A stretch of 64,000 bases of DNA from Candidatus Kapaibacterium sp. (GCA_026996895.1 JALWJX010000082.1:38031-102030); one strand, 5' to 3'. Positions 3,745 through 58,445 are shown, numbered from the stretch's first letter. Notes: generated by a model not told the origin, from the sequence alone. A program made the numbers and translations.

Positions 3745-3895
3745 AGGGAATGATGTTTGCCGACTAAAGTCGGCGCTCCCAGTGCCGGCGCTCCCGGTTT
3801 GCTGGAAGCGCACGCTTCAGCGTGTCTGGGAGCGCACGCTTCTGTGTGCATCGTCTTTGCCGACGAAACTCGGCGTTCCCCGGTATAGGACAGAC
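3745..3895. repeat. Cluster of REP-like hairpin repeats (unit TGCCGAC-N4-GTCGGCGCTCCC plus GGAAGCGCACGCTT modules) between convergent genes.
   Basis: The perfect short inverted repeat gccgacNNNNgtcggc followed by gctccc occurs twice here. It recurs at 20985-21300 in inverted orientation and at 58285-58445. Confidence 0.6.
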
Positions 3896-20984: not shown

Positions 20985-21300
20985 CGGGGGCGCCGGATTC
21001 AGCCGGCATGTTTCTGCACACTAAAGTATGCGCTCCAACCGGGAGCGCCGACTTCCGTCGGCAAAAAATAGAAGGATACACTAACGTAAATGTGTAGTAG
21101 GGGCGACCGGCCGGTCGCCCCTACGGGTGTGGATGATGTGACCAGCGGGGTTGCGCCGACTGGGAGCGCCGGCTTTAGCCGGCAAAGAATGCACCCGGAA
21201 GTGTGCGCTCCCAGTAAACCGGGAACGCCGACTTTCGCTGGCATATCTGGAACACCGACTTCCCGAAAGATAACTACAGATGTAGGCACTGCCGATTTGC
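20985..21300. repeat. REP-like hairpin repeat cluster (inverted orientation relative to 3745-3895) between convergent genes.
   Basis: It contains gggagcgccgac-ttcc-gtcggc, gggagcgccggc-ttta-gccggc, the ggggcgaccggccggtcgcccc palindrome, and gcgctccc modules. Confidence 0.6.
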
Positions 21301-31291: not shown

Positions 31292-31415
31292 CTCCGGTGT
31301 ATCATAGCGGTGTTACGGGGGCTGTCAAACGCTATCTGGCACTTTGTGCGCAACCTACGCACACTGCACTGAAAATGGCAAAATATTTTGGGTAATAAAT
31401 CAAGGAAGTCTGGTG

Positions 31416-34400
31416 ATGAAACACAGAGTCCAATTGATACTTCTGATCTGGTTGATTTTTTCACCCTTACTCTGGTCTCAGGGCAATCCCAGCGTTGGAA
31501 TCGGCACTTTTACCCCTGATCCTTCTGCAATCTTAGAGCTTCGCTCCACATCGAAGGGGTTCTTGGTGCCACGAATGACAACGGCACAACGGAATGCGAT
31601 CAGCTCTCCTGCTCTCTGGCTGCTGATCTTCAACACTGATACCCAGCAGTTTGAATACTGGAACGGCACGGTATGGATCCCGCTGATTTCTATACAAAAC
31701 GTCAGCAACAGTGCCTGGTCTCTCAGTGGCAACACGCTCACCGGGAGCGAGTTTCTTGGATCTGTGAATCTCCAGCCGGTAGTGTTCAAGACCAATGGTG
31801 CGGAGCGAATGCGGATTTCCACGACCGGCAATGTTGGTATCGGCATCATTACGCCGACCAATACCCTGCACGTTAAAGCAACCAGCAATCCCCTGCGACT
31901 GGAAGGCTTGCAGTCTCTGAGCAACGCTTCTACAATCTTAGCGGTCGATGCCAACGGCGTTGTCTACACCACCAGTGCCAGTTCCTTTACGGCATCGAAC
32001 GCCTGGTCGCTGACAGGAAATGCCGGCACTGATCCAAACACCGACTTTCTGGGTACGACGGACAATCAACCGCTGGTGATTCGGACGAACAACACCGAGC
32101 GGATGCGGATTCTGGCATCCGGTTTGGTCGGGATCGGAACCAATACCCCAACGAACACGTTGCACGTCAAAGCAACGAGCAACCCACTGCGGTTGGAAGG
32201 CGTGCAAACTACTGCCAGCGCTTCGACCCTGTTAGCCATCGACGCCAATGGGGTCGTGGTCTCGACCAGTGCCTCGACTTTTGTTGCCAACAACGCTTGG
32301 GCACTCAGCGGCAACACGCTCACTGGCAGTGAGTTCCTCGGATCAGTCAATGCCCAGCCGGTAGTGATCCGAACGAACAACACCGAGGCGATGCGGATCG
32401 ATGCCAATCAACGGGTGGGAATTGGAACGAACGCACCGAGCCACACCCTGCACGTTGCTGCGCCCAGCAATCCGTTGCGACTGGAAGGGTTGCAGTCATT
32501 GAGCAATGCGGGAACGATCTTAGCCGTGGATGCCAACGGTGTTGTCTACACCACCAGTGCCAGTGCCTTTGCTGCTGCTAACGCCTGGTCGCTGACAGGA
32601 AATGCCGGCACTGATCCGACAACGAATTTCCTGGGCACTACTGACAATCAACCGTTGGTGATCAGAGTCAATAATCTGCAAGCTGTGCGAATTGAACCAA
32701 CGAACCAAACGATCAATATCATCGTGGGAACTTCCAACATCGTCACTGCGGGCGTCTATGGAGCTGTTATTAGCGGTGGTGGATATGGAAACAATGAAAA
32801 TAAAGTCACAGACAACTTCAGTACAGTAAGCGGAGGAGTTTCAAATCAAGCTGGGAACAATAACGCTGATGTAACCGATGCACAGTACGCCACGGTCGGA
32901 GGAGGCTACGGAAATACTGCCAGCGGTTTAGGCAGCACTATTAGCGGTGGATGGAACAACACTGCCAGTGCTGCCCGGAGTACGATTGGTGGAGGATATA
33001 ACAACAATGCCATCGGATGGGGAACCACTATTGGGGGAGGTGCTGATAATATTGCCAGCAGCGAGTATAGCACAGTCAGTGGTGGGAAAAACAACAATGC
33101 CAACGTTGCTTATAGTACCATTGGAGGAGGTCTGCAAAATACTGCCAGTGGTCAATATAGTACCATTGGAGGAGGTCTGCAAAATACTGCCAGTGGTCAA
33201 TATAGTACCATTGGAGGAGGTCTGCAAAATACTGCCAGTGGTCAATATAGTACCATTGGAGGAGGCAGTGCTAATATAACAGGTGGCGATTGGAGCACTG
33301 TGAGCGGAGGATGGACAAACATTGCCAGCGGAGGTGGCAGCGTTGTTGGTGGTGGACGGGGCAATACAGCAGGTGGAGCCTATAGTACCATACCTGGAGG
33401 TCTCAACAACTCTGCCCTGGGTGATTATACCTATGCAGGAGGAAGAGCGATGTATTTGAGTACCTCGGCCAACCATACCTTTGTCTGGGGCTATGCAACG
33501 GCAACTTCTGCTATCACCGCCTCCGACGCCTTCCTCATCGGTCCCTACGGGAACAACTACCGCGTTGGGATCAATGTCGTTAATCCTACTGCTGCTCTGC
33601 ATGTCACCGCTGGAACGTGGACGTATCCATTGCGACTGGAAGGATTGCAGCCACTGAGCAACGCCGGAACGATCTTAGCGGTCGATGCCAACGGCGTTGT
33701 CTACACCACCAGTGCCAGTGCTTTTGCTGCTGCCAATGCCTGGACGCTGACAGGGAATGCCGGGACTGATCCAGCAATTAACTTCTTGGGTACAACGGAC
33801 AATCAACCACTGGTGATTCGCACCAACAACCTTGAACGGATGCGGATCTCCACGACCGGCAATGTCGGCATTGGCATCAGCACGCCGACCAACACGTTGC
33901 ACGTCAAAGCAACGAGCAACCCACTGCGGTTGGAAGGCGTGCAAACTACTGCCAGTGCTTCGACCCTGTTAGCCATCGACGCCAATGGGGTCGTGGTCTC
34001 GACCAGTGCCTCGACTTTTGTTGCCAACAACGCCTGGGCACTCAGCGGCAACACGCTCACTGGCAGTGAGTTCCTCGGATCAGTCAATGCCCAGCCGGTG
34101 GTGTTCAAGACCAGTGGAATTGAAGCGATGCGGATCGACGTTGATCAGCAGGTTGGGATCGGCACCAGCACACCAACGAACACCTTGCACGTTAAAGCGA
34201 CCATCGATCCGTTACGACTGGAAGGGTTGCAAACCACCAGTGCTACTGCGACGGTCCTGGTTTCGGACGCTGCGGGGATCGTGTACACCACCAGCGCTAG
34301 CGCTCTTGCTGCTGCCAATGCCTGGTCGCTCACTGGCAACGCTGGAACCAACCCAGCGAGCAACTTCTTAGGCACCACGGACAATCAGCCACTGATTATC

Positions 34401-37400
34401 AAAGTTAATAACGCACAGGCATTGCGCATAGAGCCAACTGTCGGATCCCCAAATATTCTGGGCGGCTACGGATTGAACAGTATCTCCAGTGGCGTAGTTG
34501 GAGCTGTTATCAGCGGTGGGGGTAGCACTGGATTATCGAACAAAGTCACCGACAATTATGGTGTTATCGGAGGCGGCGTGGGAAATCAAGTGGGAAACAA
34601 TAGCGGAGGAGCTATCGATGCTCAGTATGCAACCGTAGGTGGCGGCTATGGAAACACTGCCAGCAGTACCTCGAGCACCGTGGGTGGCGGTGAACTTAAC
34701 ATTGCCAGTGGACTCCGGAGCACTGTTGGCGGCGGTTATAGCAACACTGCCAGTGGCGATAGGGGTACTGTGGGAGGAGGTTACGGGAATACCGCCAGCG
34801 GCCCGGGCAGCACCGTTGCTGGTGGCGAGAATAATACTGCCAGTGGTGGCGTGAGTGCTGTGGGTGGCGGTGACAACAATATTGCCAGTGGTGATGTGAG
34901 CACTGTGGGTGGCGGTTATAGCAACATTGCCAGCGGTGCAGGAAGTACTGTGGGCGGCGGTACAAACAACACTGCTAGTGGCAATACCAGTACCGTATCA
35001 GGTGGAGCTTTCAATACTGCAGCAGGTGACGTTTCCTGGGCTGGAGGAGCATACATGTATCTGTCGCCCACCGCCGATCACACCTTTGTCTGGGGCTATG
35101 CAACGGCAACTTCTGCTATCACCGCCTCCGACGCCTTCCTCATCGGTCCCTACGGGAACAACTACCGCGTTGGGATCAATGTCGTTAATCCTACTGCTGC
35201 TCTGCATGTCACCGCTGGAACGTGGACATATCCATTGCGATTAGAAGGCTTGCAACCACTGAGCAATGCGGGGACAATCTTAGCGGTTGATGCCAACGGT
35301 GTTGTGTACACCACCAGTGCCAGTGCGTTTGCTGCTGCTAACGCCTGGGCACTGACAGGGAATGCCGGAACCGATCCAGCAATCAACTTCTTGGGTACTA
35401 CGGATAATCAACCGTTGGTGATTCGCATTAACAACCTTGAGCGGATGCGGATTTCCACCATCGGCAACGTCGGCATTGGCATCAGCACGCCGACCAACAC
35501 CTTGCACGTCAAAGCGACCAGTGATCCGTTGCGGTTAGAGGGCGTGCAGAGCAGTGCTAATGCGACGACCCTGTTAGCCATCGACGCCAGTGGAGTGGTA
35601 GTATCGACCAGCGCCTCGACCTTTGTTGCCAACAACGCTTGGGCACTCAGCGGCAACACCCTCACTGGCAGTGAGTTCCTCGGATCGGTCAATGCGCAGC
35701 CGGTGGTGATCCGGACCAACAACACCGAGGCGATGCGGATCGATGCCAACCAACGGGTGGGGATTGGAACCAATGCACCGAGCCACACCTTACACGTTGC
35801 TGCGCCCAGCAACCCGCTGCGGTTGGAAGGCTTGCAACCTCTGAGCAATGCGGGGACAATCTTAGCCATTGATGCCAATGGCGTGGTGTACACGACCAGT
35901 GCAACATCCTTCACCGCTGCCAATGCCTGGTCGCTCACAGGAAACGCCGGGACTGATCCAAACACCGACTTTCTGGGCACGACGGACAACCAACCGCTGG
36001 TGATTCGGACGAACAACACCGAACGGATGCGGATTCTGGCATCCGGACTGGTCGGCATCGGAACCAGCACACCGAGTCATACGTTGCACGTCAAAGCAAC
36101 GAGTGACCCGTTGCGGTTAGAGGGCGTGCAGAGCAGTGCTAATGCGACGACGCTGTTAGCCATCGATGTCAATGGGGTCGTGGTCTCGACCAGTGCCTCG
36201 ACTTTTGTTGCCAACAACGCTTGGGCACTCAGCGGCAACACGCTCACTGGCAGTGAGTTCCTCGGATCAGTCAATGCCCAGCCGGTAGTGATCCGGACGA
36301 ACAACACTGAGGCGATGCGGATCGATGCCAGTCAACGGGTGGGGATTGGAACGAACGCACCGAGCCACACCCTGCACGTTGCTGCGCCCAGCAATCCATT
36401 GCGTCTGGAAGGCTTGCAGTCATTGAGCAATGCCGGAACCATCTTAGCGGTCGATGCCAACGGCGTTGTCTACACCACCAGTGCAACATCCTTCACCGCT
36501 GCGAATGCCTGGGCACTCAGCGGCAACACCCTTACTGGCAGTGAGTTCCTCGGATCGCTCAATGCCCAGCCCGTGGTGTTCAAGACTAATGGCGTAGAAC
36601 GAATGCGAATTACTGCTGCTGGTGACATTGGCATTGGAACCACAACTCCAGGTGCCAAAGTTGACATCCGGGCGAATAGTGCCAGCGATCTGCTGGTTCG
36701 CATCTGGAACGCTGGTGGCAATGCAAAATTCCGCATCGTTGGTCAGGGTGGCAGTGCACAACCACGGTTTCAGTATACGGTCAACGCTGAATGGCTCTCC
36801 GAGATTGCCGGCAACACCAGTACAGGTTTGGAATTCCGAGTTCGTGCTCCGTCGGATCCAAATGACGAAGCAACTCTGGCAACCCGAACCCGGATGGTGG
36901 TTGGGAGGACGGGCAATGTCGGCATTGGAACGCTATCGCCAACGAATCGACTCCACGTCGTTGCTCCCAGCAACCCACTGCGACTGGAAGGGTTGCAGTC
37001 ATTGAGCAATGCGGGAACGATCTTAGCGGTCGATGCCAACGGCGTTGTCTACACCACCAGTGCAACATCCTTCACCGCTGCGAATGCCTGGGCACTGAGT
37101 GGGAATGCGGGAACCGATCCAAACACCGACTTTCTGGGTACGACGGATAATCAACCGCTGGTGATTCGGACGAACAACACCGAACGGATGCGGATTCTGG
37201 CATCCGGACTGGTCGGGATTGGAACCAATACCCCAACGAACACGTTGCACGTCAAAGCAACGAGCAACCCACTGCGGTTGGAAGGCGTGCAGACTACTGC
37301 CAGCGCTTCGACCCTGTTAGCCATCGATGTCAATGGGGTCGTGGTCTCGACCAGTGCCTCGACTTTTGTTGCCAACAACGCTTGGGCACTCAGCGGCAAC

Positions 37401-39587
37401 ACGCTCACTGGCAGTGAGTTCCTCGGATCAGTCAATGCCCAGCCGGTAGTGATCCGGACGAACAACACTGAGGCGATGCGGATCGATGCCAATCAACGGG
37501 TGGGGATTGGAACGAACGCACCGAGCCACACCCTGCACGTTGCTGCGCCCAGCAATCCGTTGCGTCTGGAAGGGTTGCAGTCATTGAGCAATGCCGGAAC
37601 GATCTTGGCGGTTGATGCTAACGGTGTGGTCTACACCACCAGCGCCAGTTCCTTTACAGCATCGAACGCCTGGTCGCTGACAGGAAACGCCGGGACTGAT
37701 CCGACAACGAATTTCCTGGGAACTACCGACAATCAACCACTGGTGATTCGCACCAACAACCTTGAACGGATGCGGATCTCCACGACCGGCAATGTCGGCA
37801 TTGGCATCAGCACGCCGACCAACACGTTGCACGTCAAAGCAACGAGCAACCCACTGCGGTTGGAAGGCGTGCAAACTACTGCCAGTGCTTCGACCCTGTT
37901 AGCCATCGACGCCAATGGGGTCGTGGTCTCGACCAGTGCCTCGACTTTTGTTGCCAACAACGCTTGGGCACTCAGCGGCAACACGCTCACTGGAAGTGAA
38001 TTTCTCGGATCGGTCAATGCGCAGCCGGTAGTGATCCGAACGAACAACACTGAGGCGATGCGGATCGATGCCAACCAACGGGTGGGGATTGGAACCAATG
38101 CACCGAGCCACACCTTACACGTTGCTGCGCCCAGCAACCCGCTGCGGTTGGAAGGTTTACAACCACTGAGCAACGCCGGAACGATCTTGGCGGTTGATGC
38201 TAACGGTGTGGTCTACACCACCAGCGCCAGTTCCTTTACAGCATCGAACGCCTGGTCGCTGACAGGAAACGCCGGGACTGATCCGACAACGAATTTCCTG
38301 GGAACTACTGACAATCAACCGCTGGTGATTCGGACCAACAATGCGGAACGGATGCGAGTGTTAGCCTCTGGCTACGTTGGTGTTGGGACGACCTCTCCAA
38401 CTGCCCGGTTAATGGCAGTCGAAGATGCACCCGGACAGGCAGTGATGCGAATCCAGAATCTGGATGCCGCTGGTCTTTCCGGTATTGAATTTCTGACCCA
38501 CACCTCTGCTGTAATGGGGTACGTTGGGCTGGAACCTGGCGGCGGTGCTCTGCGCATCTGGAGTCAGTCAAATATGATCCGGTTCTATACCAACGGCGTA
38601 GAACGGGTGCGAATCACGACCACCGGAAACGTTGGAATCGGATCCTTAGATCCGCAATATCGGCTGCACATTGAAGGCGATGGAATGATGTACGCCTCTG
38701 GAGAATTCGGCAAGGGCGCAACGATGCCAGAAGGAGCAAAGACGGCGTTCATCTGGAATCCGCGCAAAGCGGCATTGCGAGCAGGATCGGTGACAGCAGA
38801 TCAGTGGAACGATGCTCAGGTCGGCGCTTACACCGTCGCTTTTGGTAAAAACACGATTGCCAGTGGCGCATTTTCCGTTGCGGTTGGAGAAAACACGGTT
38901 GCTGAAGGAGCGGCTGCGTGGGTCGGCGGTCGGAATTTGCATCTGCTCCCGGATGCAACGGGTACGTTTGCCTGGGGCAATACCGAACACTCCACATCGA
39001 TCGAAACCAGTTATGCGTTCCTGATTGGTCCTGGAGATACGCCCTACCGTGTCGGGATCAACACGGCAACACCGACGTACGCACTGGAGTTGCCCAATGA
39101 CTCGCGAGCGAACGTGGGACAGGCACGAGCAAACGCGTGGCTGACATACGCAGATCCACGGATGTGGAGTGCAACTGAACCCATTGGCGCAACCAGTGAG
39201 CTGTTGTCACAACTCCAACCGCTTCGATACCGCGATGTTGCAGGCAAGAGCGGCTTCAGCTTTGATCCCCAGCAACTGGCAGCGGTTCTCCCGGAAGCGG
39301 TGGGGGTTCCAGCAGACAGCTCGCAGCAGTGGAGTATTAACTATGCAGCGCTCATTCCTGTGCTGGTCGCAATGCTCCAGGAACAGCAGCAGCAAATCCA
39401 GCAATTGCGGCAACAGAATCTGGCATTGCAACAGCAAGTTGCCGAAACACAGCAACTCCGGAAGCGACTGGCAAAAATGGAGCAGCAACTGTCAACGCTG
39501 GAACAGTTACAGCAGCAGGTTCGGTACCTGATCCAGCTCCAGCGTGAAGCACGCCCCGTTCCAACAGCAAGCAACGGCGGAAAATAA
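31416..39587 (+). CDS. Giant secreted repeat protein (about 2,720 aa). It has a signal peptide, about twenty ~95-aa modules, two YadA-head-like Gly-rich 14-mer blocks, a C-terminal tail-fiber intramolecular-chaperone (peptidase S74)-like domain and a Gln-rich coiled coil.
   Basis: It has a signal peptide (MKHRVQLILLIWLIFSPLLWSQ) after an aggaag ribosome-binding site. The module consensus is NAWSLTGNAGTDP..FLGTTDNQPLVIRTNN.ERMRI...VGIGT.TPT.TLHVKATSNPLRLEGLQ....LAVDANGVVYTTSAS. The STIGGGLQNTASGQYSTIGGG repeats resemble the YadA head. The C-terminus (LQPLRYRDVAGKSGFSFDPQQLAAVLPEAVGV....QWSINYAALIPVLVAMLQEQQQQIQQL) resembles the S74 chaperone domain. Confidence 0.8.
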   Translation: MKHRVQLILLIWLIFSPLLWSQGNPSVGIGTFTPDPSAILELRSTSKGFLVPRMTTAQRNAISSPALWLLIFNTDTQQFEYWNGTVWIPLISIQNVSNSAWSLSGNTLTGSEFLGSVNLQPVVFKTNGAERMRISTTGNVGIGIITPTNTLHVKATSNPLRLEGLQSLSNASTILAVDANGVVYTTSASSFTASNAWSLTGNAGTDPNTDFLGTTDNQPLVIRTNNTERMRILASGLVGIGTNTPTNTLHVKATSNPLRLEGVQTTASASTLLAIDANGVVVSTSASTFVANNAWALSGNTLTGSEFLGSVNAQPVVIRTNNTEAMRIDANQRVGIGTNAPSHTLHVAAPSNPLRLEGLQSLSNAGTILAVDANGVVYTTSASAFAAANAWSLTGNAGTDPTTNFLGTTDNQPLVIRVNNLQAVRIEPTNQTINIIVGTSNIVTAGVYGAVISGGGYGNNENKVTDNFSTVSGGVSNQAGNNNADVTDAQYATVGGGYGNTASGLGSTISGGWNNTASAARSTIGGGYNNNAIGWGTTIGGGADNIASSEYSTVSGGKNNNANVAYSTIGGGLQNTASGQYSTIGGGLQNTASGQYSTIGGGLQNTASGQYSTIGGGSANITGGDWSTVSGGWTNIASGGGSVVGGGRGNTAGGAYSTIPGGLNNSALGDYTYAGGRAMYLSTSANHTFVWGYATATSAITASDAFLIGPYGNNYRVGINVVNPTAALHVTAGTWTYPLRLEGLQPLSNAGTILAVDANGVVYTTSASAFAAANAWTLTGNAGTDPAINFLGTTDNQPLVIRTNNLERMRISTTGNVGIGISTPTNTLHVKATSNPLRLEGVQTTASASTLLAIDANGVVVSTSASTFVANNAWALSGNTLTGSEFLGSVNAQPVVFKTSGIEAMRIDVDQQVGIGTSTPTNTLHVKATIDPLRLEGLQTTSATATVLVSDAAGIVYTTSASALAAANAWSLTGNAGTNPASNFLGTTDNQPLIIKVNNAQALRIEPTVGSPNILGGYGLNSISSGVVGAVISGGGSTGLSNKVTDNYGVIGGGVGNQVGNNSGGAIDAQYATVGGGYGNTASSTSSTVGGGELNIASGLRSTVGGGYSNTASGDRGTVGGGYGNTASGPGSTVAGGENNTASGGVSAVGGGDNNIASGDVSTVGGGYSNIASGAGSTVGGGTNNTASGNTSTVSGGAFNTAAGDVSWAGGAYMYLSPTADHTFVWGYATATSAITASDAFLIGPYGNNYRVGINVVNPTAALHVTAGTWTYPLRLEGLQPLSNAGTILAVDANGVVYTTSASAFAAANAWALTGNAGTDPAINFLGTTDNQPLVIRINNLERMRISTIGNVGIGISTPTNTLHVKATSDPLRLEGVQSSANATTLLAIDASGVVVSTSASTFVANNAWALSGNTLTGSEFLGSVNAQPVVIRTNNTEAMRIDANQRVGIGTNAPSHTLHVAAPSNPLRLEGLQPLSNAGTILAIDANGVVYTTSATSFTAANAWSLTGNAGTDPNTDFLGTTDNQPLVIRTNNTERMRILASGLVGIGTSTPSHTLHVKATSDPLRLEGVQSSANATTLLAIDVNGVVVSTSASTFVANNAWALSGNTLTGSEFLGSVNAQPVVIRTNNTEAMRIDASQRVGIGTNAPSHTLHVAAPSNPLRLEGLQSLSNAGTILAVDANGVVYTTSATSFTAANAWALSGNTLTGSEFLGSLNAQPVVFKTNGVERMRITAAGDIGIGTTTPGAKVDIRANSASDLLVRIWNAGGNAKFRIVGQGGSAQPRFQYTVNAEWLSEIAGNTSTGLEFRVRAPSDPNDEATLATRTRMVVGRTGNVGIGTLSPTNRLHVVAPSNPLRLEGLQSLSNAGTILAVDANGVVYTTSATSFTAANAWALSGNAGTDPNTDFLGTTDNQPLVIRTNNTERMRILASGLVGIGTNTPTNTLHVKATSNPLRLEGVQTTASASTLLAIDVNGVVVSTSASTFVANNAWALSGNTLTGSEFLGSVNAQPVVIRTNNTEAMRIDANQRVGIGTNAPSHTLHVAAPSNPLRLEGLQSLSNAGTILAVDANGVVYTTSASSFTASNAWSLTGNAGTDPTTNFLGTTDNQPLVIRTNNLERMRISTTGNVGIGISTPTNTLHVKATSNPLRLEGVQTTASASTLLAIDANGVVVSTSASTFVANNAWALSGNTLTGSEFLGSVNAQPVVIRTNNTEAMRIDANQRVGIGTNAPSHTLHVAAPSNPLRLEGLQPLSNAGTILAVDANGVVYTTSASSFTASNAWSLTGNAGTDPTTNFLGTTDNQPLVIRTNNAERMRVLASGYVGVGTTSPTARLMAVEDAPGQAVMRIQNLDAAGLSGIEFLTHTSAVMGYVGLEPGGGALRIWSQSNMIRFYTNGVERVRITTTGNVGIGSLDPQYRLHIEGDGMMYASGEFGKGATMPEGAKTAFIWNPRKAALRAGSVTADQWNDAQVGAYTVAFGKNTIASGAFSVAVGENTVAEGAAAWVGGRNLHLLPDATGTFAWGNTEHSTSIETSYAFLIGPGDTPYRVGINTATPTYALELPNDSRANVGQARANAWLTYADPRMWSATEPIGATSELLSQLQPLRYRDVAGKSGFSFDPQQLAAVLPEAVGVPADSSQQWSINYAALIPVLVAMLQEQQQQIQQLRQQNLALQQQVAETQQLRKRLAKMEQQLSTLEQLQQQVRYLIQLQREARPVPTASNGGK
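31700..38350 (+). repeat. Intragenic tandem and interspersed DNA repeats (285-bp modules, many more than 90% identical over more than 300 bp) inside the giant gene.
   Basis: Near-identical stretches occur at about 32170-32480, 37260-37570 and 37850-38150, and at about 31830-32000, 33820-33990 and 37780-37950. The same spurious antisense ORFs (MHAFQPQWVARCFDVQRV...) appear three times. Confidence 0.8.
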
Positions 39588-48700: not shown

Positions 48701-50799
48701 AACTGATGCTGCGGTGAAGCAAGCCAGAGAGCAAAAGAATCCAGATGGGCAGTAGCACGCCATTGAAATCGAATCGAATCGCCGGGACATCGAGCAACAA
48801 GCGTATCAGGCGCCAGCAGGCGAAGTGGATACTGGAGTACCGTCACAAAGGCATCCGGTACCACCTGTGCCTGCGGATATGCTCCCCGGGCACTTTCAGG
48901 AAGTACTGGAGAGGTCGTTGTCCCTGCCAGTACAAATCGCATTGCTGCTGACGGCAACTGACGCAGCACCGTCGGCTCGTCCCGACCAATTCCGCCGAAA
49001 TACGAAGCATAGAGCAGTCGGGACAATGAAAAATCCAACTGCAACACGATGGCATCCAGATCCCCCCCGGATTCCGGCTGATCCGCATCCGGGGTCGTGG
49101 GGAATTGTGCAGAGCTGGTCCAGCCAGCCAGAAAGAACGTGGAATCCTCAAGTGCCAGCAGTGCCACTGGCTGTTCCCATCCCTGGGTTCCAACGTAGGT
49201 TGCTGCCTGAAGCTCCAGCGAGTCACGGAAATTGAGTACTGCTATCCAGATATCATCTCCTCCCTGGTAGTTTGAGTCTACGGCGCCGACGGTGACAGGA
49301 AAATCATCGGAATTGGTCACTCCGCAGAGGGCGATACCAGCAGCAGCCGGAGCGAGCGCTATGGCGTAATCTGTCAGGCGACCGCCCAGGAAACTGGAAA
49401 AGCGAAGCGTAAAATCCGGCAATGTGATTGCCGACACAAAGGCATCGAATGGACCGTGCAACGATGGTTGCAAAGCATTCACCACAGGAAAATCTGCCGA
49501 AGACGTCTTGCCAGCAACCCAGAGCATTCCATCCAGAACCATCGCTGCGATCGCAACGTCGGAACCGCTTCCACCGAAGTAGCTTTGCCACAGCGGATGG
49601 TACAGGGTATCCAGCGCAATACAATAAAAATCCGTCGCTCCCTGCAAGTGATCGAACACTGCCGTGGAGCTTACGGGAAGATCATCGGAAAGGGTTTCCA
49701 GCACTACAATTTCCATCCCGTCACCGCTGGCAATTGCCTTGCCAACATCCGTTCCTGCACCACCGATGTAAGAAGCATAATGCAGGGTCGTCAGGACGGT
49801 GTCGAATACCGCTACAAACGCATCGGTCTGCCCACCACCATAATCGGGTTGAAATGCAGACACTGTTGGAAAATCCTGTGAGCTGGTTTTTCCCGTAATC
49901 CAGACCTTCCCATTCCGCACTGCTACAGCAGTTGCTGCTTCATCGCCACTGCCACCAATCAAAGTGAAAGCGACTAATCGCAACGTTGGCGACAACACCG
50001 CAAGGAAGGCATCCGTTGGCGGTGCAAAAGTGGTATCATACCCCCCCCGGTGTGAAGGCAAGTCTGGCGAAGCAGTGCTGCCAACAACTATGATATTCCC
50101 GTTGGGCAACACAGCTCCATCGGTAATGACGTCATCACCGCTACCACCAAAGAAGGTACTCCGCACCACCGGATCCACCCACGACGGGACTGGCAGCTCA
50201 GGCGAGATCGTCACAATCGAATCCTGCACCGTTGCAAACTCTGCCGGAACCGATCGAGTCAGTACCGGTAAAACAACCTGGAGACGCTCGTGATAAACAA
50301 CGCCGGTCTTTGTTTGAATTTCCAGCGATGTTTTCCGTGCCCTCAGCGTATCCGCCCCATCCACAATCCACAATACGGATGGCACTGTCCCCAGCCATTC
50401 ATAATGGAGGCGACCCCGGTCAATCCAAAGGTGCAACTGTGTTGCTCCCGTCTCGCTGCGCAACCACAACTCCGAGTACGGCTGGCAATAAAACGGCTTT
50501 GCATTTCGCACAACGGTCCACCGTACCGGTAACGGCGATTGCGGCGTGACGACAGGCAACGGAAGGGAATACTGGAGAAAAACAACTGCTCCGGTCGTTC
50601 CTGTTGAATCCACGGAGTAATAATCAAACAGCAAGCCCCGGGTTGTCACCCAGAGCCACGCATCGGGCAAGCGACTCCAGAACAGCACGGTGTCAGGATA
50701 CCGTCCATCGTTGGGAATAAATCCTGCAATCGGCAAACGCGCATACACAGGGATCAATCCCACCAGAATGAGCCAGACAATAACTCGACGCACTCTCAT
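45790..50799 (-). CDS. Giant (1669 aa) secreted protein with SBBP beta-propeller repeats, Ig-like regions and a T9SS-type C-terminal sorting domain.
   Basis: It has a signal peptide and repeated FGGSGDD...GKTSSQDFP and GGSGDEAAT...TSSADFP blocks of the Bacteroidetes-type SBBP propeller repeat. The C-terminal ~80 aa ending in FFLRCSDGVWTVTRLIGVK resemble a T9SS sorting domain. Confidence 0.7.
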   Translation of the reverse strand: MRVRRVIVWLILVGLIPVYARLPIAGFIPNDGRYPDTVLFWSRLPDAWLWVTTRGLLFDYYSVDSTGTTGAVVFLQYSLPLPVVTPQSPLPVRWTVVRNAKPFYCQPYSELWLRSETGATQLHLWIDRGRLHYEWLGTVPSVLWIVDGADTLRARKTSLEIQTKTGVVYHERLQVVLPVLTRSVPAEFATVQDSIVTISPELPVPSWVDPVVRSTFFGGSGDDVITDGAVLPNGNIIVVGSTASPDLPSHRGGYDTTFAPPTDAFLAVLSPTLRLVAFTLIGGSGDEAATAVAVRNGKVWITGKTSSQDFPTVSAFQPDYGGGQTDAFVAVFDTVLTTLHYASYIGGAGTDVGKAIASGDGMEIVVLETLSDDLPVSSTAVFDHLQGATDFYCIALDTLYHPLWQSYFGGSGSDVAIAAMVLDGMLWVAGKTSSADFPVVNALQPSLHGPFDAFVSAITLPDFTLRFSSFLGGRLTDYAIALAPAAAGIALCGVTNSDDFPVTVGAVDSNYQGGDDIWIAVLNFRDSLELQAATYVGTQGWEQPVALLALEDSTFFLAGWTSSAQFPTTPDADQPESGGDLDAIVLQLDFSLSRLLYASYFGGIGRDEPTVLRQLPSAAMRFVLAGTTTSPVLPESARGAYPQAQVVPDAFVTVLQYPLRLLAPDTLVARCPGDSIRFQWRATAHLDSFALWLASPQHQFPIGVVAARDTTFQWILPERSTEDTLFAVVATSTDGSVLYDRSEGAIVWYQPPQISRHPEDVTVCPGSDVLFEAEGGGYPLPERVWERSTDGGKSWTPLPYERRYQLFLPTVGQSQQNALFRLRLSNVCGVAVSEPARLRLRPAPQIAVHPVTQSVCPNDSAVFYASAYPYDSVRWQRSDDGGYTWQLLPGTTEEFLVIRRADTVSPSALFRAIFFYQECSTATRGASVRKAASPKVITLSTSPTVCPGEEITLFVRAEDALAYRWQWRDRQDRPWQPVYYQASPTLRTTTSGDPGDTLWYRALLIGECDTIVTPAIPVFLLPEVPLQTFPSVIEFGTLSECAPQTTQSIQIVNPDTVAHTIVAADASDAFAIQTPLPILLPPGAATTVTIRFAPYQQGVFADTLKLRYTPCQYAIPIAVSGNKLQPFTTDLAVVDYGVHTLCRFPLDTAVQLQNRSPTDTLWIHQWTVPAPFVLSTSLPPFLAPQETFIARIVCQPALDGEFRAALSVAYSVRGCVDTMKIPLLAAARVPSLGVPELQLDSLRVCRPQLDTTLWISNRTADTLFLTVGQLPAWMDGDLAASTLLPFDSVAFHIRGIPPKGEWSDTLWLTSLPCGERTGVAVTGFRHFDSVAAPTAVSLPAVPVATRRIDTIRIVNRGTTPLWVQQAHFQAATLFRIVWMKPLLPDTLRPGEALELAVEFFALDTLHTDTLQVRLLGLCPFIVTFPVIGQAQRTAVARWSIVPFEGAPGDTVWLEIRGVLEPILQQLQPQQYVIFARWNATVLTPLDPALRTLPQTGWHTVAIPQSYSDQSADVLVSLPLLVGLGDMEYSPVWIDSVRWLFPDGFSYVLPQHYQPGTFHLRIYKEGAPQLLNPTTGSLSVTIAPNPLTDQAMIQLAGVRSPSNFRIQIYSALGQLILTLVPPLSAFEYDPTTGSWHSTLVLHRAQLGHSGTFFLRCSDGVWTVTRLIGVK

Positions 50800-52141: not shown

Positions 52142-55100
52142 ATGATGGCACAATTGTGGAAACCGCGCCTAAATACAGTATTATTGACGATCGCTCTCTG
52201 GACTGTCTGTATCATTGCTGGCTGGTCTCAGACAGTTTTCCGCGAAGGAGGCATCCCCCGGATGGTCATTGCAACTACCGGCAATGTAGGGATTGGTACA
52301 ACCACTCCTTCTATCACTGCATTGCTGGAACTCAGCTCAACCTCCGCGGGGATCCTCATTCCCCGACTCACTCAGGCAGAGCGAGATGCAATCAACTCCC
52401 CTGCGTTGTGGTTATTGATCTTCAACACCACCGCCCAGCAGTTTGAATACTGGAACGGTTCGCAGTGGATTCCTTTAATTTCTGCTACTTCTCTCACTTC
52501 CAGCAGTTGGTCACTGACGGGGAACGCTGGAACCGACCCAGCGACCAATTTTCTGGGTACCACGGATAACCAGCCGTTGGTGATTCGGACGAACAACACC
52601 GAAGTAATGCGGGTTACCACTACTGGCAACGTTGGGATTGGCACCAGTGCTCCCGGCTATCGCCTTCACCTTGCTGCTGATGGGATGATCTATGCGGAAG
52701 GAACTTTTGGTGCGGGAGCAACCGTTCCGCCGGGAGCGAAGACAGCGTTTATCTGGAACCCGCGCAAAGCGGCGATTCGAGCTGGACAGGTAACGGGCAA
52801 TCAGTGGGATGATGCGAATGTTGGCAACTACTCGGTTGCTTTTGGGTACGCTAACACTGCCAGTGGTGCTGGGAGCACCGTTGGTGGTGGGCAGGGCAAC
52901 GTTGCCAGCGGTCAGAATAGCACCCTCGGTGGTGGCTACCTGAACACCGCCAGCGGCAACTGGAGCACTGTCGGCGGCGGCTATCAGAACACCGCCAGTG
53001 GCGTTACCAGTACCATCGGTGGTGGTCTTTCCAACACTGCCAGCGATTATTATAGCACCGTCGGCGGCGGTCAACAAAACATCGCCAGCGGCACTGGCAG
53101 CACCGTCAGCGGCGGCGTCCAGAACACTGCCAGCGGGCACTATAGCACTGTTAGCGGTGGCTTTTACAACACCGCCAGCGGTTACTCCAGTATTGTCAGC
53201 GGGGGTCGGAACAATACTGCTGGCGGTGATTACTCCTGGGCAGGTGGCGGCTATATGTACCTCAGCGCTGCTGCCGATCGCACCTTCGTCTGGGGGTATG
53301 CCACGGTGACAACGGCGATTACTGCTTCGGATGCCTTTCTGATTGGTCCGTATGGCAACAGTTACCGTGTTGGGATCAACGTATTGAACCCTGCCGCGGC
53401 ACTGCATGTCAACGTTGGAAGCTGGTCGTACCCGCTACGGGTGGAAGGATTACCGACAACGAGCGCCAGCAGTACGGTGCTGGTCTCAGATGCCGCAGGG
53501 ATCGTGTACACCACCAGTGCCAGTGCACTGGCGGCATCCAATGCCTGGTCGCTGACAGGAAATGCCGGGACCGATCCAACAACGAATTTCCTGGGAACCA
53601 TTGACAACCGACCCCTGGTGATTCGCACGAACAACACCGAAGTAATGCGGGTTACCACTACTGGCAACGTTGGCGTTGGGACAGTGACACCAACAGTGAA
53701 GTTACACGTCAAGGCTGTCAGCAATCCGCTACGGCTGGAAGGGTTGCAGCCTTTGAGCAACGCCAGCACGATTTTAGCCGTCGATGGTAGCGGCGTGGTC
53801 TACACCACCAGTGCCAGTAGCCTGGCATCTGCCAGCGCGTGGAACATTACGGGGAACAGTGGTACAGATCCAGCAACGAACTTCTTAGGAACGACCGATA
53901 ATCAGCCGCTGGTGATTCGGACCAACAATGTAGAGCGGATGCGGATCACTGTTAACGGCTATGTTGGCATTGGAACAGATACTCCTGGGGAAATGCTGGA
54001 TATTGTCGGCAACTCCGATGCTGATCTGAATCTCACTTCCTTTGGTTCTTCCATTAGCACTATTCATATGCGTCGAGCCTTAGGAAGCAAATCTTCTCCA
54101 GCACCGGTAACCAACAATAACAACTTAGGTGGTGTCGAAGGCTTAGGGTACGACGGAACACAATACGTCCGGGCTGCGGGTATTGATTTTCAGGTTGATG
54201 GACCGGTCACCGCCAATGTAGTACCAGGACGGATTGTATTTCGAGTCCGACGACAAGGAAGTACCAGCTGGGGCGGAGAGGAGCAGGTGTTTATCAAAAA
54301 TGATGGAAAGGTAGGAATTCGGGTTGCCCATCCAACACATCGGCTGCACGTTGTAGCAGAAACTGGGGAAGATCCGCTCCGCCTGGAGGGTCTGCGAACG
54401 ACAACAGCGACGGTGGATTTGCTGGTTGCCACAGCCAGCGGCAGTGTGCATACCAGCAACGTACAGAGTTTAGTGGGCACTGTCGCCTGGTTGCTCACTG
54501 GAAATGCGGGGACAGATCCGGCGACGAATTTCTTAGGAACGACCGATAATCAGCCGTTGATCATCAAAGTAAACAACACGCAGGCATTGCGCATTGATCC
54601 CAACAGTGTATCGCCCAACATTATAGGCGGGTACAGCGGCAATAGCATTGCCAGCAGCGTTGTTGGGGCAATCATTAGCGGTGGTGGGAAGACAGCGGGA
54701 ACCAATCAGGTCACTGATAATTATGGCGTAGTCGGCGGCGGCGCTGGCAATCGAGCTGGCAATAATAGCGGGACAACCACTGATGCAGCGTATGCAACTG
54801 TGGGGGGAGGCTACGTTAATATAGCCAGTGGACAATACAGTATGGTTGGAGGGGGACAGAGCAACGTTGCCAGCGGGAACCATACTGTAGTTGCAGGGGG
54901 ATATAACAATCATGCCATTGGCAGTTACACTGCCGTTGGAGGGGGCATTAATAACAGTGCAAATGGCAATTATGGAATTGTCAGTGGAGGGGAACTCAAC
55001 AATGCCAGTGGTAGTTATAGCACCATTAGTGGGGGAAAGAGCAACATCGCCAGTGGTCAATACAGTGTTATAGGAGGCGGAATAAATAATGTTGCCAGCA

Positions 55101-58100
55101 ATACTTACAGTACCGTAGGAGGTGGATCTGGAAATCAAGCCAGCAGTTGGGCCAGCACAGTGGGAGGAGGACAGGGAAACACGGCAGGAGGAAATGGTGG
55201 AACGATCAGCGGCGGAGAAAACAACACTATCAATGCAGTTCTGGGTACAATCGGAGGAGGACAGGGAAACACGGTCAGTGGAGATAGAGGGACAATTGCA
55301 GGGGGACAGAATAACGCTGTTAATGGTATTGCAGGCACAATCGGAGGAGGACAGGGAAACACGGCAGGAGGAAATGGAAGTACAATCGCTGGAGGACAAA
55401 GTAATACTGCCAGCAGTAGTTATAGCAGCATTGGTGGAGGTATAAACAACAGTGCCAATGGCAACAATAGCACCGTTGGCGGTGGGGAACTCAACAGTGC
55501 CAGCGGCAGTCATAGTACTGTTGGAGGTGGCAAGAGCAACGCTGCTGGAGGTAGTTATAGCACAATCGGGGGAGGCATTAATAACGCTGCTGAAAACAAC
55601 TATAGTGCAGTCGTTGGCGGTCAAAATAACAAAGCCAGAGGATGGTACAGCACGATTGGAGGTGGAGGTGATAATAGCGTGAGCGGGAGATATAGTACGA
55701 TCAGCGGAGGAAGGGGCAATACCGTAGCAGGCGATTATGGATGGGCTGGGGGACGGGGAATGTACGCCGTGAGTTCTGCTGATCGGACCTTTGTCTGGGG
55801 CTATGCAACAGCGACGACGGCAATTACGGTATCAGATGCGTTTTTGATCGGTCCGTACGGGAACAGCTATCGAGTCGGGATCAACATACTGAATCCAACC
55901 GCGGCATTGCACGTCAATGCTGGGACGTGGAGCTACCCATTGCGGGTAGAGGGATTACCCTCAACCAGTGCCAGTAGCACAGTGCTGGTATCGGATGCCA
56001 GTGGGATTATTTACACCACCAGCGCCAGCAGTCTGGTCGGAAGTAATGTATGGTTGTTAACCGGCAATGCGGGCACGAATCCGGCAAGCAATTTCCTGGG
56101 TACCACCGATAATCAACCACTATCGATCCGCAGCAACAATCAGGAGGTTGTGCGAATTTCAACCTCGGGTGTGCAAATGCTACATCATAATACCACCTCT
56201 GTCCTCAGCATAGGTCCCAATCAACGAGTGAAAATTCAGGAATACCAACCGCACAGTGGAACTGATATTGGTGCCCCGGTGTGGGGGCGAGGCAGGATCA
56301 GTGTTGGAGGGACTGTCATCACAGGCTTTTGGCCCGCCGTGAAGTTTAACACGTACTGGAATCCTGCCGTAAGTCAGAACGTCCACATCACAACAGGGTC
56401 AGCATTCGTGATCAACCACGAACAGGACCCCGCTGCAAACAATCTGGTCATTTACTACTCCCCGTACCGATCAGCAGGTCAACAGTTTCAATACAATATA
56501 GGGCTTGCACTGACAACTTCCGGCAATGTTGGCGTTGGAACTGATACCCCAACAGCGAAGCTCCATATCAGCGCAACCAGTGCACCTTTGCGGCTGGAAG
56601 GATTGCAGGCAACCAGTGCAACGACAACCTTGTTGGCAGCAGATGGGCAGGGGGTGGTATATGCAACCAATGCCAGCAGTTTGATCAACAATCAGGCGTG
56701 GTCATTATTTGGCAACAGCGGGACGGACCCAGCAGTGAACTTCGTAGGAACTATCGACGCCCAACCGCTGGTGTTCCGGACGGGCAACGTTGAACGGGCG
56801 CGGATTACAACAGCAGGGCATCTGGGGATTGGAACCTCAAATCCCGGGTGGCTTCTGGATGTTGCTGGAACTGTCCACTTCGGAACCAGCGGAAACTTTG
56901 GAACCATCATTGCTGATATGCAGGCAGCCAACTTGTATGCTGGGGGATTGCAGGTGCGTAAGCGTGGAGCCACTGGAGATGCAAATGCGGCCGTCGTGGA
57001 TGGTTCAGAAATTGGTTATCACGATTTCTGGGGCTGGGATGGGAACAATTACAAGCGGTTAGCATACGTATTGGTAACCGCTCACGGAAATATTACCCCA
57101 GGCAGCGGTGGGGGCGATTATGCGATCGTAACTCGGGATCCAACGACCAATACTGAAGAGACTCGACTTTTCATCGATGCTCGAGGATATGTTGGGATCG
57201 GAACGACAACGCCGCTGCGACGCCTGGTGGTTGGCAATGACGATATTAACGGCATCAGTCTGGAAGAAGGCACCAGTCCGAATGCGGGATATTTGCGTTT
57301 TGGCGATAATACGGGATGGAAGTTTCACATTGGTCGCTCTCGGGAAAGCACATCAGGACCGTTGAATATAAGCACAACCGGGGTATTGGTAACAATTCAG
57401 GATGACGGCAACGTAGGAATTGGCAACACAGCACCACCAGCAACGTTGACAATCACAAATGCTATAGAGCTGCGCGGCAGTGGGAATGTATCATCGGTAG
57501 AAAGTGATATTCTCTTCACCTACAGCGGCGGTATTGCGGCGCAGAATAGTTTATACTTCTTCATTGATGCTGACAACAATGATGATGATACTCGAGCTTT
57601 CCGATTTCGCCGCAATGGGGAGACCATTAGTTCAACCAACACTGAAGATTTAATGGTCATTCGGGAAAGTGGAAAGGTTGGCATTGGGGTCGGTAATCCG
57701 AGCAATATTCTCACCATCGTACAAAACTCTTCCACAGATCCTATTGCCGATGCGTGGACAACGTATTCCACGCCGGAGACGAAAATCGTGTTAGGAACAC
57801 TGGATGCTGAAGCGCTGGAAGAATACCTCCGCCAGTTCAAGCAGTTGCCCATATATAAATGGCAGCGGACGGAAAGCGAACCGATCCGGGTCAGTGCAAT
57901 GGCAGAACCGGGCACACCGTCAGAAATTATGGCGTACGATGAAAAAGGAGAAATCCAGGGAATCGACCTGCAGGGATACATCGGGTTCTTACACACAGTG
58001 GTCAAAGCCCAACAGCAAATCTTAGAGCAGCAGCAGGCAGCGATCCAGCAACTCCAGACATCGACGCAACGCCAGCAGACAGAGATCCAGCAGCTTCGGC

Positions 58101-58246
58101 AACAACTGGCAACTCTGCAGCAGGTGCTGGAGCAGGACAGGAAACGCCAGGCGGAAGTAACAGCGCTGCGGCAGGTAGTGCTCCAGCTGCAGCAGCAAAT
58201 CGAACAGCTCCAGCAGCAACTCAAAGTGACACAGAGCCAGCAGTAG
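52142..58246 (+). CDS. Giant secreted repeat protein 2 (2034 aa), a paralog of 31416-39587 with the same module types, Gly-rich 14-mer blocks and a C-terminal S74-like chaperone domain plus Gln-rich coiled coil.
   Basis: It has a signal peptide (MMAQLWKPRLNTVLLTIALWTVCIIAGWSQ). Modules read NAWSLTGNAGTDPATNFLGTTDNQPLVIRTNNTEVMRV. Gly-rich repeats read STVGGGQGNVASGQNSTLGGG. The C-terminus reads STPETKIVLGTLDAEALEEYLRQFKQLPIYKWQR...IQGIDLQGYIGFLHTVVKAQQQILEQQQAAIQQL. Confidence 0.8.
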   Translation: MMAQLWKPRLNTVLLTIALWTVCIIAGWSQTVFREGGIPRMVIATTGNVGIGTTTPSITALLELSSTSAGILIPRLTQAERDAINSPALWLLIFNTTAQQFEYWNGSQWIPLISATSLTSSSWSLTGNAGTDPATNFLGTTDNQPLVIRTNNTEVMRVTTTGNVGIGTSAPGYRLHLAADGMIYAEGTFGAGATVPPGAKTAFIWNPRKAAIRAGQVTGNQWDDANVGNYSVAFGYANTASGAGSTVGGGQGNVASGQNSTLGGGYLNTASGNWSTVGGGYQNTASGVTSTIGGGLSNTASDYYSTVGGGQQNIASGTGSTVSGGVQNTASGHYSTVSGGFYNTASGYSSIVSGGRNNTAGGDYSWAGGGYMYLSAAADRTFVWGYATVTTAITASDAFLIGPYGNSYRVGINVLNPAAALHVNVGSWSYPLRVEGLPTTSASSTVLVSDAAGIVYTTSASALAASNAWSLTGNAGTDPTTNFLGTIDNRPLVIRTNNTEVMRVTTTGNVGVGTVTPTVKLHVKAVSNPLRLEGLQPLSNASTILAVDGSGVVYTTSASSLASASAWNITGNSGTDPATNFLGTTDNQPLVIRTNNVERMRITVNGYVGIGTDTPGEMLDIVGNSDADLNLTSFGSSISTIHMRRALGSKSSPAPVTNNNNLGGVEGLGYDGTQYVRAAGIDFQVDGPVTANVVPGRIVFRVRRQGSTSWGGEEQVFIKNDGKVGIRVAHPTHRLHVVAETGEDPLRLEGLRTTTATVDLLVATASGSVHTSNVQSLVGTVAWLLTGNAGTDPATNFLGTTDNQPLIIKVNNTQALRIDPNSVSPNIIGGYSGNSIASSVVGAIISGGGKTAGTNQVTDNYGVVGGGAGNRAGNNSGTTTDAAYATVGGGYVNIASGQYSMVGGGQSNVASGNHTVVAGGYNNHAIGSYTAVGGGINNSANGNYGIVSGGELNNASGSYSTISGGKSNIASGQYSVIGGGINNVASNTYSTVGGGSGNQASSWASTVGGGQGNTAGGNGGTISGGENNTINAVLGTIGGGQGNTVSGDRGTIAGGQNNAVNGIAGTIGGGQGNTAGGNGSTIAGGQSNTASSSYSSIGGGINNSANGNNSTVGGGELNSASGSHSTVGGGKSNAAGGSYSTIGGGINNAAENNYSAVVGGQNNKARGWYSTIGGGGDNSVSGRYSTISGGRGNTVAGDYGWAGGRGMYAVSSADRTFVWGYATATTAITVSDAFLIGPYGNSYRVGINILNPTAALHVNAGTWSYPLRVEGLPSTSASSTVLVSDASGIIYTTSASSLVGSNVWLLTGNAGTNPASNFLGTTDNQPLSIRSNNQEVVRISTSGVQMLHHNTTSVLSIGPNQRVKIQEYQPHSGTDIGAPVWGRGRISVGGTVITGFWPAVKFNTYWNPAVSQNVHITTGSAFVINHEQDPAANNLVIYYSPYRSAGQQFQYNIGLALTTSGNVGVGTDTPTAKLHISATSAPLRLEGLQATSATTTLLAADGQGVVYATNASSLINNQAWSLFGNSGTDPAVNFVGTIDAQPLVFRTGNVERARITTAGHLGIGTSNPGWLLDVAGTVHFGTSGNFGTIIADMQAANLYAGGLQVRKRGATGDANAAVVDGSEIGYHDFWGWDGNNYKRLAYVLVTAHGNITPGSGGGDYAIVTRDPTTNTEETRLFIDARGYVGIGTTTPLRRLVVGNDDINGISLEEGTSPNAGYLRFGDNTGWKFHIGRSRESTSGPLNISTTGVLVTIQDDGNVGIGNTAPPATLTITNAIELRGSGNVSSVESDILFTYSGGIAAQNSLYFFIDADNNDDDTRAFRFRRNGETISSTNTEDLMVIRESGKVGIGVGNPSNILTIVQNSSTDPIADAWTTYSTPETKIVLGTLDAEALEEYLRQFKQLPIYKWQRTESEPIRVSAMAEPGTPSEIMAYDEKGEIQGIDLQGYIGFLHTVVKAQQQILEQQQAAIQQLQTSTQRQQTEIQQLRQQLATLQQVLEQDRKRQAEVTALRQVVLQLQQQIEQLQQQLKVTQSQQ

Positions 58247-58284: not shown

Positions 58285-58445
58285 AGGAAAGCGCTTCTTA
58301 GGATGCATTCTCTGCCGACGAAAGTCGGCGCTCCCGGTGGGGTTCACTGGAAACGCACGCTTTAGTGGGCGTTCACTGGGAACGCACCCTTGAGGGTGCA
58401 CTCTCTTTGCCGGCTAAAGTCGGCGCTCCCGGTAGAGTGCTTGTT
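58285..58445. repeat. REP-like hairpin repeat cluster between the convergent fiber-2 and TauE genes.
   Basis: tgccgacgaaagtcggcgctcccgg and tgccggctaaagtcggcgctcccgg flank ggaaacgcacgcttt and gggaacgcaccctt modules. Confidence 0.6.

Follow-up and report, generated by a model that had tools for sequence, protein, structure and literature searches.

A second long fibre-like protein of a Kapaibacterium, related to MAT and phage tail fibres and ending in a divergent S74-type domain

The closest described counterparts of the protein analysed here are the mosaic adhesive trimer (MAT) fibres of Bdellovibrio bacteriovorus, in particular those of the S74 subgroup such as Bd3182 (Caulton et al. 2024, PMC10769870), which join a signal peptide, a conserved N-terminal domain and a beta-helix stalk bounded by capping loops to an S74-type chaperone/protease end, and which are encoded on the chromosome as multi-copy families. 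A comparable arrangement, in which the N-terminal domain is likened by position, is found in a 2034-aa protein from Candidatus Kapaibacterium sp., encoded by a single ATG-started open reading frame (ORF) at 52142..58246 (+) of a 64,000-nt stretch of DNA (GCA_026996895.1 JALWJX010000082.1:38031-102030; hereafter, the window), and parts of this protein directly match solved MAT structures. We refer to this ORF as gene 2; its paralog, gene 1 (ORF 31344..39587 (+), with a likely start at 31413 that gives 2724 aa), lies 12.5 kb away on the same strand. An earlier note on this DNA, made from the sequence alone, had recognised gene 2 as a second giant fibre-like paralog about 13 kb from the first, and in these respects it was right.

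We propose, at a probability of roughly 0.7, that gene 2 encodes a Sec-exported, homotrimeric and very long surface fibre of the MAT/phage-tail-fibre kind, matured by self-removal of an S74-type chaperone. We see in it a divergent variant within a class already known, not a new type of system.

The C-terminal domain and its relatives

When aa 1566-1975 served as the query, 283 proteins were retrieved. Many of them bear the label of the S74 family, PF13884, and 13 of the labelled proteins align over the full 135 aa of the C-terminal query with 34-42% identity. The aligned relatives share a linker of the form NILTVVQNSxTDPIADAWTTY, followed either by a canonical domain that begins SSRRWK or by a domain of the gene 2 type that begins STPETK; the linker (TDPIADAWTTY) hardly varies among 23 homologs drawn from the two chaperone subtypes, and its pattern was used to retrieve 71 genomic and 5 viral loci. 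PF13884 was matched by 8/15 aligned members (best E 1.3e-16), and an hhalign comparison of the gene 2 subfamily with the PF13884-positive canonical group, confined to the domain after the cleavage junction, gave a probability of 96.8% (E 2.7e-10, 73 columns). The gene 2 subfamily profile alone found no match in the PDB, and phmmer searches of PDB sequences with the C-termini of both genes returned noise only. Judged from these profile comparisons, the S74 relationship of the gene 2 C-terminus is real but remote.

At the junction gene 2 reads S1876-T-P-E-T-K1881. The Ser and the Lys are invariant in 9/9 subfamily sequences, and their i/i+5 spacing is that of the S74 motif SDxxxK, the Ser of which is required for cleavage of Bd3182 (PMC10769870). 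An AlphaFold2 (AF2) model of aa 1796-2000 has confidence values (pLDDT) above 90 from the junction onward, and when the C-terminal model was compared with the PDB by Foldseek the S74/ICA families ranked at the top, with none reaching E<=1e-3; on this model, aa 1876-1950 are predicted to adopt the S74/ICA fold. The domain is followed by an 85-aa helix rich in Gln (34% of the last 100 aa), which AF2 renders as one long helix over model residues 148-204 (pLDDT 94-98) and whose best heptad register places hydrophobic residues at 58% of a/d positions, consistent with a probable trimeric coiled coil. The Gln-rich coiled coil and the C-terminal peptides quoted in the earlier note are thus present in gene 2.

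The two paralogs differ at this end of the protein, where the earlier note had taken them to be alike. The gene 1 C-terminal domain aligns with the canonical S74 group (hhalign 96.2%) and scores 8% against the gene 2 subtype, and its junction YADPRMW (39150-39167, aa 2580-2585) lacks both the Ser and the Lys found in cleaving relatives (YS-S/D-x-x-x-K). Gene 1 therefore has a canonical-like chaperone that lost the pair, whereas gene 2 has a rare STPETK subtype that retained it, so that gene 1 should be non-cleaving and gene 2 cleaving. The gene 1 domain looks like a natural non-cleaving version, and together the genes would form a natural pair for asking what autocleavage adds to fibre maturation.

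The presence in gene 1 of an S74-aligned domain with Ala/Asp and with Trp or a gap in place of Ser and Lys indicates that non-cleaving versions exist in the same genome, and the gene 2 domain might likewise act as an uncleaved folding and trimerisation module, its chaperone and coiled coil staying on as the distal end of the mature fibre, as they would have to in gene 1. In keeping with this, the gene 2-type domain is too divergent for Pfam, and an 85-aa coiled coil would be unusually long for a part that is discarded. We regard such a non-cleaving role as a live minority possibility, one that the conservation of the junction speaks against: Ser and Lys stand at catalytic spacing in every one of the 9 subfamily members, although their domains are only 47-68% identical to that of gene 2, three viral relatives hold the Lys and swap the Ser for Cys, which is also a nucleophile, and the pre-cleavage linker is conserved as strongly as it is among cleaving proteins of the canonical type.

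A profile of the gene 2-type domain matched 90 cluster representatives at E<=1e-3, and 13 at E<=1e-30, among 1.84 billion. The genomic relatives come from Kapaibacterium, from other metagenome-assembled genomes (MAGs) of Bacteroidota/Chlorobiota and from several MAGs of the Candidate Phyla Radiation (CPR; Saccharibacteria, Gribaldobacteria, Patescibacteria); the canonical subtype, joined to this same linker, occurs across a wide range of phyla. Four CPR/Patescibacteria loci (L005, L006, L008 and L010) carry the subtype as STPE(T/S)K at 55-62% identity, and the CPR copies have 100-240 further aa after the domain in place of the Gln-rich coiled coil. Five IMG/VR contigs hold gene 2-type relatives, one of them (L074) inside a cluster of phage tail-fibre genes. 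In the IMG/VR loci L073, L075 and L076 the junction, near locus position 6000, is Y-T/P-C-D/N-R-x-x-K, with Cys for Ser and the Lys kept, and the chaperone domain contains insertions of 40-80 aa. A tblastn search of 50,697 phage genomes with the gene 2 C-terminus gave no match. It is conceivable, if unlikely, that the STPETK domain forms a separate and rare S74-type lineage found in phage tail fibres, Kapaibacteria/Chlorobiota-like Bacteroidota and episymbiotic CPR bacteria, and that Kapaibacterium contacts cells by means of both cleaving and naturally non-cleaving fibres. If this were true, the fibre pair would serve cell contact as MATs do on the prey of Bdellovibrio, pointing to an unrecognised lifestyle of cell-cell attachment.

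The N-terminus and the stalk

Gene 2 begins with a predicted Sec-type signal peptide, which has a positively charged n-region, a hydrophobic core of 18 residues and the ending WSQ; the gene 1 protein has the same type with the same ending, as had been noted before. In the alignment, homologs have AQ or SQ directly before the first domain, and AF2 places a helix at aa 7-28. The unit that follows the signal peptide is conserved and widespread in Bacteroidota, with no Bdellovibrio name among the 120 matches listed. The name PF26696 'PTL_trimer' stands here for a precomputed label, and neither 'PTL_trimer' nor 'PF26696' turned up in the literature searched; we consider the unit a putative proximal trimerisation or anchor domain.

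We analysed the stalk with a hidden Markov model (HMM) built from the 13 complete 96/98-aa modules of gene 1 (NAWSLTGNAGTDP...RTNN). Gene 2 contains one complete 96-aa module; the rest of its set consists of five N-halves and five C-halves, between which other domains are inserted. The proposal that both proteins draw on one family of 95-aa modules thus holds as to the family (E to 3e-46), with a module length of 96 aa and a gene 2 set reduced to one complete copy. Within the stalk lie two Gly-rich blocks, Head 1 (~8 copies, aa 248-368, nt 52883-53245) and Head 2 (~22 copies, aa 865-1203, nt 54734-55750), made of repeats of the pattern GGGxxNxAxGxxSTV. The longer block is where it had been placed earlier (about 54600-55770), and its period is 15 aa (45 nt by Tandem Repeats Finder, TRF), not 14. 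The isolated Head 1 segment matches UspA1_rep PF18792 (E=1.8e-14, 53 bits, cut-off 27), and aa 1077-1190 of Head 2 match the Moraxella UspA1 head 3pr7 (E=1.8e-20) and also 3ntn; 15-residue repeats that match this head imply a trimeric left-handed beta-roll.

The beta-helix units connect gene 2 to MAT and phage fibres. Aa 596-737 match the Bdellovibrio Bd1334 fibre (PDB 8oml, E=7.8e-7), aa 1669-1804 match Bd2133 (PDB 8ond, E=9.4e-7), and the solved MAT fibre structures 8ol4 and 8ojn are matched as well. The distal region matches tail-fibre families of PHROG (phrog_18345 tail fiber, E=9.5e-34; phrog_9942, E=8.1e-22). The protein has 11 copies of the motif VGIGxxxPxxxL, compared with 0.02 in shuffles; in MAT and S74 beta-helices this motif is the capping loop (PMC10769870). 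Together with the UspA1 matches, these hits bear out the description of the protein as fibre-like. One inserted segment, the 111 aa at aa 1346-1456 (56177-56509), is absent from the module set of gene 1, is 96-100% conserved in the ortholog described below, and found no family match in a Pfam scan of sub-segments; it might provide the stalk with an additional knob for binding.

The homology of the two paralogs extends beyond low-complexity composition. In blastp, one high-scoring segment pair (HSP) joins gene 2 aa 32-1864 to gene 1 aa 318-2048 at 36% identity (902 bits, E=0), the N-termini are 51% identical, and HSP identities range overall from 28 to 51%. Common to both are the type of signal peptide, a PF26696-type N-terminus (57% identity), the 96-aa module family, a pair of Gly-rich heads, beta-helix units, and a C-terminus in which an S74-like domain is accompanied by a Gln-rich helix. 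Their complete modules number 13 in gene 1 and 1 in gene 2, and their head repeats 13 + 10 and 8 + 22, respectively, so the common architecture proposed in the earlier note is common as building blocks and their order and not in its details. A tblastn search with gene 2 found no further paralogs in the window besides gene 1.

A syntenic ortholog of 2004 aa lies between EamA and TauE/pyruvate kinase genes in the Kapaibacterium MAG WFXC01000016 (L003 2445-8582), from a genome ~90% identical at the DNA level. The non-repeat parts of the two proteins are 92-100% identical, comparable to the 94-98% of neighbouring genes, which indicates that gene 2 is under purifying selection. In the ortholog the module at aa 430-528 is missing, the complete unit of gene 2 (aa 467-563) has no counterpart at its position, and a complete module stands elsewhere; it has 10 Head 1 repeats where gene 2 has 8, and one additional 104-aa beta-helix unit near the tip. 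Head 2 is the most variable part, with 22 copies in gene 2 and ~9 in the ortholog, while base, tip and chaperone remain at 92-100% identity. These module and repeat indels indicate that the stalk evolves by intragenic gain and loss of modules with a conserved base, tip and chaperone, and they provide a clear case in which stalk length has changed between close relatives while tip and base stayed fixed.

Whole-module indels between orthologs, together with the presence of two homologous, repeat-rich genes on one strand 12.5 kb apart, could also be taken to mean that gene 1 and gene 2 are antigenic or phase-variation cassettes in which shared DNA drives segment exchange. The earlier note had put forward recombination of this kind and pointed to a shared 29-mer, which is exact in gene 1 (two copies) and has one mismatch in the gene 2 copy at 53540. 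We consider the cassette reading very unlikely. The DNA identity of the two genes is 65-84%, and the DNA comparison revealed no high-identity conversion tracts and nothing that points to a recent transfer from one locus to the other. No exact match exceeds 26 nt, which leaves inter-locus recombination unsupported. In E. coli, 26 nt is about the shortest length at which RecA-dependent exchange is efficient. Inside each gene, exact repeats are far longer (up to 236 nt within gene 1 and up to 47 nt within gene 2), and no invertase, recombinase or diversity-generating retroelement adjoins either gene.

Genomic setting and layout of gene 2

An ENA metagenome contig (JOHN19-1_SAMN10217876 scaffold_2715) is 100% identical to gene 2 and its flanks over 10,105 nt; since it is independent, the ORF is not peculiar to one assembly. 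Compared with two Candidatus Kapaibacterium MAGs, the flanks show 96.6% identity to JALWUI010000166 and 90.6% to WFXC01000016, and gene order around gene 2 is preserved in both. Upstream lies a gene for an EamA transporter and downstream those for TauE, pyruvate kinase and NAD kinase; between gene 1 and gene 2 are genes for a methyl-accepting chemotaxis protein (MCP), an ECF-type sigma factor, an MscS channel and a 1669-aa Ig/BNR-like protein. No phage genes were found among the annotated neighbours, and this, with the kept synteny, marks gene 2 as a chromosomal, cellular gene.

This setting bears on a further reading, in which gene 2 is a tail-fibre gene of a prophage or tailocin. The PHROG matches, a chaperone of the S74 type that is typical of phage fibres and the IMG/VR relatives would fit it, but the Sec signal peptide, neighbours such as EamA, TauE, pyruvate kinase, NAD kinase, MCP and the sigma factor, the synteny in two other Kapaibacterium genomes and a C-terminus unmatched in the phage genomes searched by tblastn make it highly improbable. 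Hardly better placed is a classical adhesin, either a type Vc trimeric autotransporter or a gliding/adhesion protein exported by the type IX secretion system (T9SS): UspA1/YadA-head-like repeats and a host in Bacteroidota would suit it, yet Pfam and NCBIfam scans (E<=0.1) found no YadA_anchor beta-barrel or T9SS C-terminal sorting domain, and the C-terminus is an S74-like domain with a coiled coil. The readings as a prophage gene, as a type Vc or T9SS adhesin and as an inter-locus cassette were all rejected: every one of them either fails a tested defining feature or is unsupported.

Table 1 Features of the gene 2 protein, with positions in the window (iE, independent E-value)
Feature	aa	Position (nt)	Strand	Basis
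Predicted Sec-type signal peptide, MMAQLWKPRLNTVLLTIALWTVCIIAGWSQ	1-30	52142..52231	+	Charged n-region, hydrophobic core, WSQ end
N-terminal domain	31-118	52232..52495	+	Precomputed label PF26696 'PTL_trimer'
Stalk module N-half	122-180	52505..52681	+	Module HMM positions 2-58, iE 3e-25
Head 1: base, Gly-rich beta-roll repeats, neck	181-407	52682..53362	+	UspA1_rep, TRF
Stalk module C-half	408-466	53363..53539	+	Module HMM positions 40-96, iE 8.5e-18
Sole complete 96-aa stalk module	467-563	53540..53830	+	Module HMM positions 1-95, iE 3.4e-46
Split module with inserted MAT-like beta-helix unit	565-778	53834..54475	+	Module HMM (N-half aa 565-627, insert aa 628-712, C-half aa 713-778), PDB 8oml
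Split module with Head 2	782-1300	54485..56041	+	UspA1 head structures, repeat list
Split module with unique 111-aa insert	1302-1516	56045..56689	+	Module HMM halves
Distal region: module N-half followed by a run of three beta-helix units (aa 1579-1855) with VGIGxxxPxxxL capping-loop motifs	1519-1855	56696..57706	+	PDB 8ond, PHROG
Conserved pre-cleavage linker, NILTIVQNSSTDPIADAWTTY	1855-1875	57704..57766	+	Near-invariant in homologs
Divergent S74-type intramolecular chaperone domain, Ser1876/Lys1881 (predicted fold)	1876-1950	57767..57991	+	
Gln-rich C-terminal helix	1943-2034	57968..58243	+	Gln content, heptads, AF2

A scan for a sigma-70 promoter and a terminator at gene 2 was uninformative; by eye, the motif TAtTTTTG, ~35 nt upstream of the ATG, bears a resemblance to the -7 element of Bacteroidota. 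The 1669-aa ORF between the fibre genes (45790-50799 (-)) has Ig_3, BNR, TMEM131-like and ASH matches, all sub-threshold, and is putatively another large surface protein of the neighbourhood. On the other side, a 1061-aa ORF (28106-31291 (+)) with a signal-peptide-like N-terminus and no Pfam match stops 52 nt before the long ORF of gene 1 (start 31344) and may encode a partner or co-transcribed surface protein of gene 1. A short palindromic element (GGGAGCGCCGACTTTCGTCGGC-like, hairpin GCCGAC-GAAA-GTCGGC) is repeated across several intergenic regions, with copies directly 3' of gene 2 (58316-58338 and 58410-58433) and at 21038-21063, 21162-21193, 21218-21237, 3756-3780 and 3858-3880; the L002 spacer that corresponds to the downstream region of gene 2 shows an 86% match to window positions 21030-21218. 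The element looks like a REP/MITE-like repeat family (repetitive extragenic palindrome/miniature inverted-repeat transposable element).

Proposed assembly and comparison with described fibres

In the self-chaperoned fibre that we favour, the C-terminal Gln-rich coiled coil and the S74-type chaperone domain would put three chains in register and nucleate the folding of an intertwined beta-helix/beta-roll stalk, which would then proceed N-terminally. Ser1876, helped by Lys1881, would cut the chain just before Ser1876, freeing a 159-aa fragment of chaperone and coiled coil and leaving the distal beta-helix tip (aa ~1579-1875) exposed as the end that binds, while the small PF26696 domain would keep the base of the trimer near the cell. 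The stalk between them would be a mosaic of split 96-aa modules with inserted domains, including the two UspA1/YadA-head-like blocks of 15-residue beta-roll repeats, whose length and composition may shift rapidly through intragenic repeat recombination. Of this picture, the analysis shows the ORF, the homology of each part in Table 1, the conserved Ser/Lys pair, the fold match, the chromosomal setting and the module indels between orthologs, whereas trimerisation, autocleavage, surface display, an adhesive role and the route across the outer membrane are inferred.

Several points weigh against this proposal. PF13884 was matched neither by the full gene 2 protein (E<=0.1) nor by its isolated C-terminus (E<=10), the gene 1 C-terminus being likewise unmatched even at E<=10, and Pfam and NCBIfam scans of the whole gene 2 protein and seven sub-segments found no S74, T9SS or autotransporter-anchor family. 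The second residue of the SDxxxK motif is Thr in gene 2 and not Asp. As devices for outer-membrane translocation or anchoring, no T9SS C-terminal domain, autotransporter barrel or lipobox was recognised. The PF26696 unit of gene 2 (~70-90 aa) and the beta-rich domain of MATs (~130 aa) are likened by position only. The AF2 models are monomers of the expected intertwined trimer, and the evidence on the gene 2 fibre consists of sequence and predicted models. The earlier note had called the C-terminus S74-like and had named a failure to match S74-type models as grounds for giving up that claim; the Pfam model does fail to match, whereas the profile-profile and fold comparisons support the assignment. 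The standard S74 model misses the whole subtype, so that such fibres are under-annotated.

Compared with MATs, with which it has the capping motif in the form VG(I)G/NxxxPxxxL in common, gene 2 is about twice as long (2034 aa vs ~1000 aa) and differs in its stalk, which contains beta-roll heads of UspA1-like 15-mers as well as modules of the 96-aa family, and in its divergent STPETK chaperone, missed by Pfam, with an 85-aa Gln-rich coiled coil after it; its host, Kapaibacterium, is not a known predator, in contrast to Bdellovibrio. A related class comprises the phage S74 domains (PF13884: K1F endosialidase 3GW6, T5 L-shaped tail fibre 4UW8, phi29 gp12 3GUD) and the eukaryotic MyRF ICA domain (7DC3); relative to these, gene 2 is without a Pfam match, has S-T-P-E-T-K for S-D-x-x-x-K and a much longer, Gln-rich helix, and is a cellular protein with a signal peptide. 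With the heads of trimeric autotransporters (Moraxella UspA1 3PR7/3NTN, YadA-like) it has 15-residue repeats in common, although in gene 2 these sit inside stalk modules and not in an N-terminal head, and the membrane anchor of those adhesins is absent. If our proposal is correct, gene 2 extends self-chaperoned trimeric fibres of the MAT/tail-fibre kind to a little-studied lineage of Bacteroidota.

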